Part shown: piece by piece, positions 54,982-63,590 of the stretch
Layout of the letters: each line of letters starts with the position of its first letter
Position numbering within the stretch: position 1 is the first letter of the stretch
Source: a virus
Length of the DNA stretch: 64,000 nt
Strand: one strand, 5' to 3'
Virus record (IMG/VR): IMGVR_UViG_3300025424_000296
Span: 1-64,000 of that record
Program-made: the position numbers and the translations under genes
Notes under the pieces: generated by a model
Databases searched by the model: none
What the model was told of the DNA's origin: nothing
What the model saw: only the letters and a program-made list of their open reading frames with translations

Positions 54982-55036
54982 TTGACATTAAGTTATAAGG
55001 CACTATATTAAACATATAAAAGAAAGGAAACCGACT

Positions 55037-55225
55037 ATGAATAGATTCTTTATTACAACAACTCTAATGGTCGTACTTGCTACAACTTCGATCCCTAACT
55101 ATCTAGGATCTCTGATCGATGGAAATAGTGGTGGCTATCGATACGAAGCCAATGCTTCTACAATTAATAGAAAGCTGTCTTGTTTTACTCGTAGCTGGGA
55201 TGGACACACTACAGACTGTCTCTGA
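55037..55225 (+). CDS. Small hypothetical protein
   Basis: TTGACA promoter and AAGGA RBS. Confidence 0.45.
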   Translation: MNRFFITTTLMVVLATTSIPNYLGSLIDGNSGGYRYEANASTINRKLSCFTRSWDGHTTDCL

Positions 55226-55272
55226 GGTTAACAGAGTTTTAAAAGATGCTAGTATATATGAGTAATAAATGT

Positions 55273-55352
55273 TTCCTTGTAGCTCAGTTGGTAAAGTAGT
55301 GACTGTTAATCACTTAATCACTTAGTCGTTGGTTCGAGTCCAACCGGGGGAG
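55273..55352 (+). pseudogene. Degenerate tRNA-Asn(GUU)
   Basis: Anticodon arm AGTGA-CTGTTAA-TCACT, T-arm GTTGG-TTCGAGT-CCAAC; 8-nt duplication TTAATCAC, D-stem mismatch, three G:U in the acceptor, no CCA. Confidence 0.7.
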
Positions 55353-55412
55353 ACAAAATTAAATAATTTTGTGATTTGACTCAGTTACGTACATCACTTA
55401 TAATCATTGATT

Positions 55413-59410: not shown

Positions 59411-60145
59411 ATGTTTACATTTTTTCACAGAACAACAAAAATAACTCTAGATTGTTTTACAGCTATGCCCGAAGTTTATAACTGTGTGCCAATAATTAAA
59501 ACATCGAGAACTATACCAGACTGGTGGAAATCTTTACCAAATCCTGGCAAAGGAAATGCATTAGTGAATCCTAACGACAATAACAATATGCGGCGTTGTT
59601 ACGGATTTGTTGAGCTGTTGAAAAAAGGTGTAACCTTATGTAATTGGGCAGATATGCATCTCCGTGTGACCGATGCTGGATATAAATTTAAAGTTACTGC
59701 CGGAGTAGAACCGGGATGCCATCATACTGATCAATATCAAGGAGCATTTTTAGACTGGTTTCACGTTAAGATGCATAGTCCTTGGTACTTCAGAGAAAAA
59801 ACAGGAGTACAATTTTTGTTTATGGGTGCTGAATGGCTGTTAGACAAATACGACTTTAAAGTTTTACCAGGTGTCGTTGAATTTCAAGTTAATGCTGCAA
59901 CTAATGTTAATATTATGGTACAAGCCAGAAGAGATCCGTATGATATATTTTTACCAGCAGGCCAGCCGTTAGTACAGTTAATACCATTAACTGAAAATAA
60001 AACAATAGAAGTAAAATGCCATGTAGTAACAGATGCAGAATACAGTAAAATTGCTCGACATCATATAACTTATAGGGGAATTAAAGAACAATTAAAATTA
60101 TATAAAAAGGCGCATACACCTGAATCAAAGTGTCCTTTTCACTGA
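59411..60145 (+). CDS. Paralog of 56089..56832
   Basis: End-to-end motif sharing. Confidence 0.8.
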   Translation: MFTFFHRTTKITLDCFTAMPEVYNCVPIIKTSRTIPDWWKSLPNPGKGNALVNPNDNNNMRRCYGFVELLKKGVTLCNWADMHLRVTDAGYKFKVTAGVEPGCHHTDQYQGAFLDWFHVKMHSPWYFREKTGVQFLFMGAEWLLDKYDFKVLPGVVEFQVNAATNVNIMVQARRDPYDIFLPAGQPLVQLIPLTENKTIEVKCHVVTDAEYSKIARHHITYRGIKEQLKLYKKAHTPESKCPFH

Positions 60146-60175: not shown

Positions 60176-61735
60176 ATGCAAATTAATAGTATAATAATTG
60201 TAGGCGGGGGATCATCAGGATGGATGACTGCTGCTCTAATTTCAAAATTACTACCTGAAATTAATTTATCACTAGTAGAATCTAAACATATACCTATCAT
60301 CGGCGTCGGGGAATCAACTTTATCAAGTATTAACTCATATTTGCGAAGACTTGAAATACATGATGATCAATGGATGAGTAAATGTAATGCTACTTATAAA
60401 ACATCTATTAGATTTACTAATTTTTTTGAACAGGGTAAATCATATCATGACGTATTAAAATATCTAGAGGTTCCATTTCCCATACCAGGTAATTTTGGAA
60501 TTACAATATTTAATCTATTATGCCTTAGATTTCCTGACGAATTTAGACCAGAAGATTTACCTAAATTTGCAGATGACACTTGGCAAATGATAGAAAATAA
60601 CAGGTACACCGATGATCCTGGTCCAATGAGTTGGGATACTAAAAAAGAAAAAGCATATCATTTTGATGCTTATAAATTTGGATTGGTATTAAAAGATTTA
60701 TTAGCCATTCCGAATGGAACAACACACATACAAGACGATGTATTAGAAGTACAAACTGATAAATTTGGTGTTAGCGGACTTGTGACTAAAGAACATGGAA
60801 TATTAACAGCCGACTTATACATAGACTGTACAGGATTTAAGTCGTTATTGCTAGGTGAAACATTGGATACCCCTTTTAATAGGTTTGATGATACGCTGTT
60901 AAATAATAAAGCTGTAGTTACCAACATACCATATCTTGATAAAGTTAATGAATTAACCAGTTATACTGATTGTACAACCATGCCAAATGGTTGGCTATGG
61001 ACTATCCCTACATGGGATAAACTCGGAACAGGATATGTTTATTCAGATAAATTTGTTGATAATGAAACTGCAAAAAAACAATTTATAGACACTCTGAGAT
61101 CTCGATATGGAGACAGAGTTAACGAATGTGAATTCCGTTACATTGAATTCACTCCCGGTGTGAGGGATATACCATGGAATAAAAATGTCGTCGGTATTGG
61201 ACTAAGTTGTGGATTTATAGAACCACTTAGATCAACCGGACTTCAGGTTACACATGATATGGCAATAACATTAACTGATATATTAATTAAAAACAGTAGG
61301 AAAATAGGTAGTATTAATAAAGAAATTTATAATTTTAATGTTAAAGTACTCTTGCACAATGCTAGAGATTTTGTATCTTTACATTACGCATTATCTAAAA
61401 GATGCGACACAGATTATTGGAAACACGCAGTAAATGATGTAAGTTATTTTAAGGATAATGATCTTTTTAAACAATTTGCATATTCTGGAACTAGTAATGT
61501 ATTGAATAAATTTAACAGTAATGATCAAATGTTTAGAACGTATGCTAGTTCTGGATATAATAGAATGACAGAAGCTGATTTTAAAATTTTATTAGACGAT
61601 AATCCTGATTTAGATAGAGATTTACAAACTGTTAAAAAGATATGGACAAGACGGCATCAAGAAATCGGAGCATATGTAAAAACGTTGCCTACTACAGCTG
61701 AATTTTTAAAGAAAAATATATATAATACCGATTGA
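60176..61735 (+). CDS. Flavin-dependent tryptophan halogenase-like protein
   Basis: VGGGSSGW, IGVGEST, AT.K (catalytic Lys position), AYHFDA, DCTGF, W.W.IP, F.EPL.STG. Confidence 0.92.
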   Translation: MQINSIIIVGGGSSGWMTAALISKLLPEINLSLVESKHIPIIGVGESTLSSINSYLRRLEIHDDQWMSKCNATYKTSIRFTNFFEQGKSYHDVLKYLEVPFPIPGNFGITIFNLLCLRFPDEFRPEDLPKFADDTWQMIENNRYTDDPGPMSWDTKKEKAYHFDAYKFGLVLKDLLAIPNGTTHIQDDVLEVQTDKFGVSGLVTKEHGILTADLYIDCTGFKSLLLGETLDTPFNRFDDTLLNNKAVVTNIPYLDKVNELTSYTDCTTMPNGWLWTIPTWDKLGTGYVYSDKFVDNETAKKQFIDTLRSRYGDRVNECEFRYIEFTPGVRDIPWNKNVVGIGLSCGFIEPLRSTGLQVTHDMAITLTDILIKNSRKIGSINKEIYNFNVKVLLHNARDFVSLHYALSKRCDTDYWKHAVNDVSYFKDNDLFKQFAYSGTSNVLNKFNSNDQMFRTYASSGYNRMTEADFKILLDDNPDLDRDLQTVKKIWTRRHQEIGAYVKTLPTTAEFLKKNIYNTD

Positions 61736-61770
61736 CTTTATCAACAAAGACTATATAGTATAAAAACGTT

Positions 61771-61860
61771 ATGAGAAAGAACAAAACAGTGGGCTACTGG
61801 CTAAATTTTATTTGTTTGCAACTAACCTGGATTGAACCAGGGGAGGGGCCTATCGTATAG
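61771..61860 (+). CDS. Attenuator leader peptide MRKNKTVGYWLNFICLQLTWIEPGEGPIV
   Basis: ATG about 10 nt after TTGACT-N16-TATAGT promoter; stop codon lies in the 5' arm of the antiterminator. Confidence 0.55.
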   Translation: MRKNKTVGYWLNFICLQLTWIEPGEGPIV

Positions 61861-61922
61861 TGTGATGTGATGACATTATACGACTTTTAGGCCCTTGGAA
61901 CAGACGTGTTTCAAGGGTTTTT
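61844..61922 (+). promoter_or_regulatory. Mutually exclusive antiterminator/terminator (attenuator)
   Basis: Antiterminator 61844-52/61888-96 plus 61853-63/61873-83; terminator CCCTTGGAACA-GACG-TGTTTCAAGGG-TTTTT shares 61892-96. Confidence 0.75.
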
Positions 61923-61944
61923 GTTTATCAAAGGAGAAACTGAA

Positions 61945-62100
61945 ATGAAATGGTCCAAGTTGATTCAACGAACATACAAAGCTATAATCAAGGGCGATGT
62001 AGAAAAAGAAGCCAAACTATGGCATAGAGCTCTTAAGAAAAATATGAAAGCGCATGCCAAAGGTAAAAAGAGAAAACCAGGCGATACTGTTATACGTTAA
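61945..62100 (+). CDS. Small basic protein (51 aa)
   Basis: AAGGAG RBS just after the attenuator. Confidence 0.65.
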   Translation: MKWSKLIQRTYKAIIKGDVEKEAKLWHRALKKNMKAHAKGKKRKPGDTVIR

Positions 62101-62110
62101 AATCCAGTAT

Positions 62111-62187
62111 GCTCCCATAGATTACGTTGGTTAGATCGTTGCCCTTTCACGGCAAAGAACCCGGATCGTCGCCGGGTGGGAGCACCA
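62111..62187 (+). tRNA. tRNA-Glu(UUC), non-canonical T-loop
   Basis: GCTCCCA/TGGGAGC, TTGCC-CTTTCAC-GGCAA, CCCGG-ATCGTCG-CCGGG, ACCA. Confidence 0.9.
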
Positions 62188-62201
62188 TTTAAAAGTTATA
62201 A

Positions 62202-62278
62202 TGGCGTGTAGCTCGGTTGGTCAGAGCATTCGACTGATAATCGAAAGGTCGGTAGTTCAAATCTACCCATGCCAACCA
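62202..62278 (+). tRNA. tRNA-Ile(GAU)
   Basis: TGGCGTG/CATGCCA, TTCGA-CTGATAA-TCGAA, T-loop TTCAAAT, ACCA. Confidence 0.93.
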
Positions 62279-62344
62279 TTATAAATAGATTTACTACAAT
62301 TTATACCATAAAATATCATATTTATAATACATAAAGGAACATTC

Positions 62345-63112: not shown

Positions 63113-63176
63113 ATCCTTAATTTATTGACTTTGTAACTTTTATTACAAAATAATAAATGATCAAGGAGGAAAGACC

Positions 63177-63368
63177 ATGAATAAGATTTTAATCACACTA
63201 ATAGTATCACTATTTGCTACATCTGTTGTGGCACTAACCGTCATACCGGCAGCAGTAAAAACTTCAAATGATGTTGCAGTTTCCAAACCAGCTGCTAAAT
63301 CCCACACAGGAACTTGGTTGCCACCAAAAGAAATACAAGACAAGGTTGCAAAAGAAAAACAAAAATAA
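63177..63368 (+). CDS. Small secreted protein
   Basis: AGGAGG RBS; signal peptide. Confidence 0.6.
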   Translation: MNKILITLIVSLFATSVVALTVIPAAVKTSNDVAVSKPAAKSHTGTWLPPKEIQDKVAKEKQK

Positions 63369-63382
63369 TATACTTTAAAGAT

Positions 63383-63458
63383 GCTGGTGTAGCTCAGTTG
63401 ATAGAGCGCGGCATTAGTAATGCCGATGTCGGGAGTTTGAACCTCTCCACCAGCACCA
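63383..63458 (+). tRNA. tRNA-Thr(AGU)
   Basis: GCTGGTG/CACCAGC, CGGCA-TTAGTAA-TGCCG, GGGAG-TTTGAAC-CTCTC, ACCA. Confidence 0.88.
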
Positions 63459-63463
63459 CCTTA

Positions 63464-63590
63464 GCCCTTGTAGCCCAACTGGCAGAGGCAGGAGACTTAC
63501 GAGAAAGGGTTAAAGCCCATAACGGTGCGATTCCGGAATCTCGGAGATAAAATCTCCCAAGTATCAGTTCGAATCTGATCAAGGGCACCA
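63464..63590 (+). tRNA. tRNA-Leu(UAA)-like gene with a 50-nt anticodon-loop insertion (Val UAC if spliced in another register)
   Basis: GCCCTTG/CAAGGGC-ACCA, D-arm GCC/GGC, anticodon stem GGAGA/TCTCC enclosing 57 nt, T-arm ATCAG-TTCGAAT-CTGAT. Confidence 0.85.

Follow-up and report, generated by a model that had tools for sequence, protein, structure and literature searches.

The first 64 kb of the 113,210-bp IMG/VR virus record IMGVR_UViG_3300025424_000296 (this whole stretch of 64,000 nucleotides (nt) being the window in what follows) contain, at 61732–62278, a short leader open reading frame (ORF) and two overlapping hairpins in front of a small gene and two transfer RNA (tRNA) genes. This element is probably a ribosome-mediated leader-ORF attenuator heading an operon made of a 51-amino-acid (51-aa) protein, tRNA-Glu and tRNA-Ile. 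The leader would be translated, and the position of the ribosome on it would decide the outcome of transcription. The parts of the locus are all in place, their arrangement departs from chance expectation, and they recur in related phages with changed stem sequences and with the leader stop codon held in a conserved register within one of the hairpins. Judging from these sequences, a lineage of giant freshwater phages appears to keep a whole family of such cassettes in front of its tRNA genes.

Anatomy of the locus

The promoter, the leader ORF, both hairpins and the terminator all lie where an initial annotation, made from the sequence alone, had placed them. The features of the locus, including the downstream genes, are the following:

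61732–61759, plus strand: sigma70-type promoter (TTGACT-16-TATAGT), whose -35 hexamer overlaps the TGA stop codon of the upstream halogenase gene
61771–61860, plus strand: 29-codon leader ORF, closed by a TAG stop (61858–61860)
61826–61841, plus strand: small hairpin of 5 bp (P1), within the leader ORF and 2 nt before the antiterminator
61844–61896, plus strand: antiterminator hairpin, in which 61844–61863 pairs with 61873–61896 and whose 5' arm contains the leader stop
61891–61927, plus strand: intrinsic terminator and U-tract (stem 61891–61902/61907–61918, -17.2 kcal/mol)
61931–61936, plus strand: Shine-Dalgarno (SD) sequence AAGGAG, 8 nt before the small ORF
61945–62100, plus strand: first gene after the switch, encoding a conserved basic protein of 51 aa, predicted to form a helical hairpin
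62111–62187, plus strand: tRNA-Glu (UUC), 11 nt after the small ORF
62202–62278, plus strand: tRNA-Ile (GAU), the second tRNA after the switch

The antiterminator consists of 8 + 11 bp around an internal loop, with a lower stem (61844–61851 with 61889–61896) and an upper stem (61853–61863 with 61873–61883). Positions 61889–61896 are common to this long hairpin and to the terminator, so that the bottom pairs of the terminator compete with the lower stem of the antiterminator, and the terminator stem is directly followed on its 3' side by T5GT3. The SD sequence and the small ORF begin 9 nt past the U-tract; a promoter would not fit in the stretch from the terminator to the SD sequence, and the small ORF therefore needs read-through to be transcribed. 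Of the 29 occurrences of AAGGAG in the genome, 18 stand before an ORF of at least 50 codons. The promoter itself ranks 32nd among the sigma70-like sites of the genome, and its 16-nt spacer is frequent among the best of these sites.

Taken as a whole, the segment 61765–61930 folds far better than expected (z = -4.85, with 0 of 200 shuffles as good), and of the approximately 13 clean intergenic intrinsic terminators of the 113-kb record, none but that at 61891 has a strong competing structure in the preceding 50 nt. The leader ORF alone is weak evidence, since an ORF of this kind arises in 3–15% of shuffles. The small P1 hairpin may act as a pause hairpin synchronising the ribosome and the polymerase.

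The genes of this phage have clear SD sites, many of them end with clean intrinsic terminators, and sigma70-type sites are enriched between genes, with about half of the 45 best sites falling into the 7% of the genome that is intergenic. The SD sites, the sigma70 promoters and the intrinsic terminators therefore point to a bacterial host, in which coupling of transcription and translation is possible in principle. A eukaryotic giant virus with hairpins as 3'-end signals was also considered for the record, and was set aside in view of the bacterial-type operons, the SD sites and the sigma70 promoters.

Conservation of the cassette in related phages

An exhaustive HMMER search with the small ORF at 61945–62100 recovered three small homologues, and a search of IMG/VR with the small-ORF alignment returned 27 loci (L086–L112). 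In L086–L099, the homologue is followed by 2–15 tRNA genes within the stretch fetched, and it is preceded by the same succession of parts as in the window, namely promoter, upstream ORF (uORF), P1, antiterminator, overlapping terminator and SD sequence. These relatives comprise eight distinct upstream sequences, which together with the window form seven clearly different versions, L087, L088 and L089 being close to one another. The leader ORF is present in all nine versions, with 23–28 codons in the relatives and 29 in the window. The initial annotation had proposed to look for such loci, and they keep both the ORF and the overlap of the two hairpins; the leader stop within the 5' arm of the antiterminator likewise recurs, together with the two-hairpin layout, in front of tRNA genes.

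The register of this stop codon is conserved. Counted from the first nucleotide of the 5' arm, it lies at 13–16 nt (at 20 nt in L088, where an indel makes the register differ and the next in-frame stop is used), and in all versions 1–8 nt before the end of this arm and 26–33 nt before the terminator. The footprint of a terminating ribosome, about 28 nt, would therefore cover the whole 5' arm and none of the terminator. The other distances are similarly constrained: across versions, the antiterminator and the terminator overlap by 5–8 nt, and the terminator ends 22–30 nt before the ATG of the small ORF. P1 is found in every version, 0–5 nt before the antiterminator, although its stem is built from three unrelated sequences. 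The lower stem of the long hairpin joins, in the relatives, a 5' strand rich in G to a 3' strand rich in C; the latter opens the terminator, and the U-tract, AAGGAG and the small ORF follow.

The pairing is maintained in spite of sequence change. The upper antiterminator stems differ in all versions and their pairing stays canonical, compensatory changes are found at 6 of the 11 terminator pairs, and even between the close L087 and L088 an A-U pair of the upper stem has become G-C. Outside the stems, the sequence is poorly conserved. Across the 5' part of the ORF, identity to the other versions is 45–57% for L097, the window and the L087 group (45–53% for the window itself), and the remaining four versions are 67–70% identical to one another. 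A covariance model (R1), built from the eight relatives only with the window left out, matched the window at 61824–61924 with 26 bits (E ~6e-4), as its sole significant match in the 64 kb, the next one having E = 0.44. The window is also the most diverged member, the other members scoring 64–94 bits. The relatives L086–L099 and the window are homologous: they have the small ORF in common, the parts come in one order, the stop keeps its register and the covariance model is matched. The window differs from them by its shorter 5' untranslated region (UTR) without SD sequence, its 29-codon ORF, another P1 stem and the presence of two tRNAs only.

The promoter of the relatives stands at the equivalent place and reads TTGACA-17-TATAAATA, and their leaders have a purine-rich GAG, GAGAG or AAGG(AA) 5–8 nt before the ATG. 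TATAAATA is the T4-type late-promoter motif, of which seven copies occur in the 113-kb record, six of them intergenic, including one at 62280–62287, directly after tRNA-Ile and ahead of the glycosyltransferase gene. By its sequence, the attenuator promoter of the relatives could serve both early and late transcription. The genes upstream of the cassette vary (the halogenase in the window, tRNA-Ser genes in L098 and L099, other ORFs elsewhere) and the cassette keeps its own promoter behind these differing neighbours, so that it amounts to more than a 3' end for the gene before it.

An analogous cassette was found in a separate lineage (L042:838–1066), with a 46-codon leader that uses most amino acids and has its stop in the antiterminator. 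There, the antiterminator spans the whole 5' arm of the terminator, and a different small ORF follows. L042 also carries a halogenase gene within a 23-tRNA region; apart from this locus, a halogenase search of IMG/VR yielded matches of at most 42% identity without tRNA synteny, and a search of a large protein database matches of at most 54% identity. Other queries were less productive. Nothing close to the family-17 glycosyltransferase (GT17) protein was found in viral or metagenome contigs, the small ORF as a single query found nothing in viral contigs or in a word-indexed database, and the small-ORF alignment found nothing in genome contigs. A 1585-aa protein led to two distant contigs, both without the locus. 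Exact-word searches with tRNA-Glu and tRNA-Thr returned one unrelated phage and nothing, respectively, and the 15-mer of P1 gave 118 matches, mostly due to chance and including one duplicate of L098. With blastn against GenBank phages, tRNA-Ile was the only part matched. No duplicate of the cassette was found elsewhere in the 113-kb record, including by covariance-model search.

Predicted behaviour of the switch

How would such an element work? Transcription would start near 61766, and the nascent RNA would fold P1 and then the long antiterminator, whose 3' strand takes up the first 5–8 nt of the terminator stem, that is, the pairs adjoining the U-tract. A ribosome that promptly reaches the last codons or the stop would cover the 5' arm of the antiterminator, so that the terminator would form and the polymerase would stop at 61919–61927 (OFF). 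If the ribosome were instead delayed or stalled more than about nine codons before the stop, the antiterminator would stay intact, and the small gene and the tRNAs would be transcribed (ON).

Termination upon arrival of a ribosome at the stop, and read-through upon stalling, had already been put forward in the initial annotation, and folding models bear out the former: a ribosome footprint placed on codons 23–30 of the window leader covers the whole 5' arm and gives a terminator probability of 1.0. A stall at codons 13–15 brings the modelled probability of the antiterminator to 0.5–0.7 in the window, and a stall at codons 10–13 brings it up to 0.9 in L099. For the window, the local difference between terminator and antiterminator energies is +1.1 kcal/mol; L086, L097, L098 and L099 give values of -0.4 to -2.2. 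In five of the seven versions the two states are locally near-isoenergetic, with refolding barriers of 4–10 kcal/mol, as would be expected, within the model, of a switch under kinetic control.

Pairing of the 5' part of the uORF with the 5' arm of the antiterminator (1:2 pairing) is not above shuffles across the versions (Fisher p = 0.15), L099 alone being individually significant. A trp-like 1:2 anti-antiterminator, which would have made untranslated RNA terminate, was suggested by several minimum-energy folds and did no better than shuffles. According to the initial annotation, the upstream hairpin does not overlap the antiterminator; this has to be qualified for the window, where P1 can be extended by four weak pairs (61818–61823 with 61844–61849) that reach the antiterminator arm, and it stands in so far as no 1:2 pairing is conserved.

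What the leader may sense

Codons for Glu, Ile, Thr and Leu are all present in the leader, as the initial annotation had noted for the four tRNAs that it listed downstream. Such mirroring is expected by chance, as all four amino acids occur together in random 29-mers with the amino-acid usage of the phage with P = 0.50, and the codons have no value as a signal. Furthermore, three of the five Glu and Ile codons stand so late in the leader that a stall on them would favour termination or have a mixed effect. All seven versions have a Trp codon and six of them a Cys codon, although these amino acids account for only 1.6% and 1.0%, respectively, of the proteins of the phage. The Trp codon is not read here as a signal, because it belongs to the P1 stem.

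A general gauge of the speed of leader translation is the most economical reading of these data. We tentatively extend it, in a form that may well turn out otherwise, to a gauge of decoding speed, by which slow ribosomes would switch on the phage tRNAs together with the 51-aa protein, itself a part of the response. Under such a scheme, ribosomes could be slowed by depletion of host tRNAs, by an anticodon-nuclease defence, by starvation or by phage shut-off, and the 51-aa protein may bind the ribosome, tRNA or its own leader RNA. That the switch responds to anticodon-nuclease defence or to starvation, as suggested in the initial annotation, is a conjecture, although recent studies of phage tRNAs (PMC10264068, PMC11464382, PMC11555353) make the former appealing.

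Genes behind the switch

The fold predicted for the 51-aa protein (pLDDT 83) is a hairpin of two helices plus a basic tail, and the protein has no match in Pfam, PHROG or PDB. Fold comparison matched only generic helical hairpins, all with E > 2. Its family falls into two subfamilies: members of 51–52 aa head tRNA arrays behind the attenuator, and a sister subfamily of 43 aa is encoded directly after a metallophosphoesterase-like gene, with a permuted transfer-messenger RNA (tmRNA) gene following in three loci (L100, L105 and L111).

The initial annotation had the switch gating the whole tRNA cluster. In the window, this holds for tRNA-Glu and tRNA-Ile, which are the only tRNAs behind the switch; it does not hold for tRNA-Thr and a further tRNA bearing an insertion, because these have their own promoter (63125–63154), beyond the glycosyltransferase gene. 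The insert-bearing tRNA (63464–63587), the fourth of the region, reaches 44 bits with the Rfam tRNA model only if about 50 nt are taken as inserted into its anticodon loop, and is not called by ARAGORN. Its identity (Val UAC or Leu UAA) hinges on the position of the insert. For a group I intron, this insert would be far too short.

Other tRNA genes of the phage are arranged in simpler ways. At 54982–55354 and 63125–63458, a sigma70 promoter is followed by a strong SD sequence, a hydrophobic ORF (62–63 aa) and tRNA, without any leader switch; the tRNA is tRNA-Asn in the first case, and tRNA-Thr with the insert-bearing tRNA in the second. Finally, a promoter stands 46–47 nt upstream of tRNA-Met (2020), and likewise of tRNA-Cys (67333 in the record). 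At the scale of the record, whose completeness of 28% (CheckV) implies a genome of several hundred kb, the genes include DnaK, ClpX, PrkA with DUF444, a tryptophan-halogenase-like enzyme and the family-17 glycosyltransferase.

Objections and alternative explanations

Several observations weigh against a ribosome-mediated attenuator. In the absence of ribosomes, the naked full leader favours the terminator, with a probability of about 0.9 in most versions; in the window, the terminator wins by 3.4 kcal/mol, and the barrier to reach it from the co-transcriptional structure is 1.5 kcal/mol. The claim of the initial annotation that absence of translation gives read-through thus finds no support in the models, in which untranslated RNA would rather lean towards termination. 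The terminator even wins at equilibrium at every modelled ribosome position in L096, L098 and the L087 group, where the function would therefore have to be kinetic. The leader ATG of the window (61771) has no SD sequence and lies about 5 nt from the predicted transcription start, at only 11 nt from the -10 hexamer, compared with an implied 5' UTR of about 15–25 nt in the relatives. It is in this respect unlike the genes of the phage and the leaders of the relatives, so that the window copy may be poorly translated. The leader has no run of any codon and no cluster of regulatory codons, and therefore no specific signal can be named. In addition, a sigma70-like site within the small ORF (TTGATT-17-TATAAT, 61960–61988) scores as well as the promoter at 61732, and could, if it is active, drive tRNA-Glu and tRNA-Ile while bypassing the switch. 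Lastly, a uORF arises by chance in 13–32% of dinucleotide shuffles per version, and the product over the seven versions, 6e-6, overstates their independence given their shared ancestry, and becomes about 6e-4 if four lineages are counted.

Could the attenuator be real and its leader ORF merely tolerated? It would then be run by a trans-acting factor, for which a phage or host RNA-binding protein (possibly the 51-aa protein) or a processive antiterminator timing the passage from early to delayed-early transcription could be candidates, or else be a constitutive partial terminator. The default of the naked RNA to the terminator, the versions in which no ribosome position favours the antiterminator and the lack of an SD sequence in the window copy would all fit such a control, as would the fact that the basic helical-hairpin protein is always the first gene, as in autoregulated leaders. 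However, it would leave unexplained why an ORF of 23–29 codons is kept in all versions at 45–70% nucleotide identity, and why its stop holds a register of 13–16 nt inside the antiterminator arm; moreover, no protein-binding motif was identified, and we consider this explanation unlikely. A related explanation, rather unlikely as well, is that the family works as a ribosome-sensing attenuator and that the window copy, having lost the 5' UTR and the SD sequence of its leader, is decaying or has been rewired into a fixed partial terminator. The 11 nt between its -10 hexamer and its ATG, where the relatives have longer UTRs with purine-rich motifs, and its covariance-model score, the lowest of the family, go in this direction. 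On the other hand, the ORF, P1, the stop register and the balance between antiterminator and terminator are all intact in the window, whose energy balance is the most even of the family, and the actual start could be a GTG in frame at 61789, which follows a purine-rich although weak stretch and would give a leader of 23 codons, the usual length in the family.

The remaining explanations do away with the switch altogether. A promoter, about 155 nt of highly structured RNA and a strong terminator are also what a stand-alone small RNA would look like, with the downstream genes served by incidental read-through or by another promoter, and a terminated product of this kind would accumulate under any of the models. 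Nevertheless, no Rfam family is matched, conservation is poor outside the stems, the SD sequence and the ORF come 9 nt past the U-tract without a promoter, and the linkage to the small ORF and the tRNAs is conserved, all of which make a small RNA distinctly improbable. Similarly, the hairpins might mark the 3' end of the upstream operon (P59331, the gene at 59411–60145 and the halogenase), the promoter and the ORF being coincidental: the halogenase stop lies 156 nt before their terminator, with no other terminator in between, and transcripts from upstream would end there too. This is very improbable, as the cassette of the relatives follows other neighbours, such as tRNA-Ser in L098 and L099, and keeps its own promoter, and as the other terminators of the phage lie 10–30 nt past a stop codon, ahead of the next promoter. 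A leader-ORF attenuator read by the ribosome is the explanation that we retain as the most probable.

Relation to known systems

To our knowledge, almost nothing is known of how the expression of phage tRNA genes is controlled. In most discussions these tRNAs figure either as constitutive supplements to the codon usage of the phage or as decoys for defences that cleave tRNAs (PMC10264068, PMC11464382, PMC11555353). No attenuator on tRNA genes turned up in full-text literature searches. Of the published systems, the nearest is the trn operon of Anabaena PCC 7120, an accessory tRNA array that is silent and becomes induced by impaired translation (PMC8421152). There, the promoter is the point of control, and the repressor TrcR acts by binding direct repeats (PMC8421152, PMC10272220); the words attenuator, leader and terminator do not occur in the text of PMC8421152.

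Sensing of impaired translation by a short uORF is described for several resistance genes, such as vmlR in B. subtilis (PMC9226507), msrD in streptococci (PMC10314930) and the tylosin-induced yxjB (PMC6851288). As proposed for the phage element, the uORF of these attenuators senses impaired translation in general, flips a terminator/antiterminator pair and induces a gene that aids translation. In these systems, however, it is a particular nascent peptide on which the drug-bound ribosome comes to a halt, and the uORF and an anti-antiterminator overlap, whereas the phage leader has no known arrest motif or inducer, and its output is tRNA.

There is also a formal resemblance to the leader-peptide attenuators of enterobacterial amino-acid operons (trpL, hisL, pheL, leuL, thrL and ilvL), with which the phage element shares a promoter-proximal short ORF, a terminator placed before the first gene, and an antiterminator that has nucleotides in common with this terminator. 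The predicted logic is also alike, a ribosome at the end of the leader giving termination and a ribosome held back giving read-through. The phage element departs from this type by the lack of a regulatory codon run and of a supported 1:2 pairing (combined p = 0.15), and by the position of its leader stop inside the 5' arm of the antiterminator. It is moreover encoded by a phage, and its output consists of tRNAs and a small protein instead of biosynthetic enzymes. Curated Rfam models run on 61736–62115 reported nothing at threshold, the best being His_leader (17.6 bits, for a threshold of 49), which matched the terminator part only.

With a conserved leader-ORF switch ahead of their tRNA genes, some giant phages would measure translation itself and make tRNAs on demand. 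The element also singles out a family of small proteins that would be co-regulated with these tRNAs. If the leader is indeed a gauge of decoding speed, it would be the first attenuator known for tRNA genes, and phage tRNAs would have to be seen as inducible and feedback-regulated. The textbook mechanism of the amino-acid operons would in this way be extended to the translation apparatus itself.

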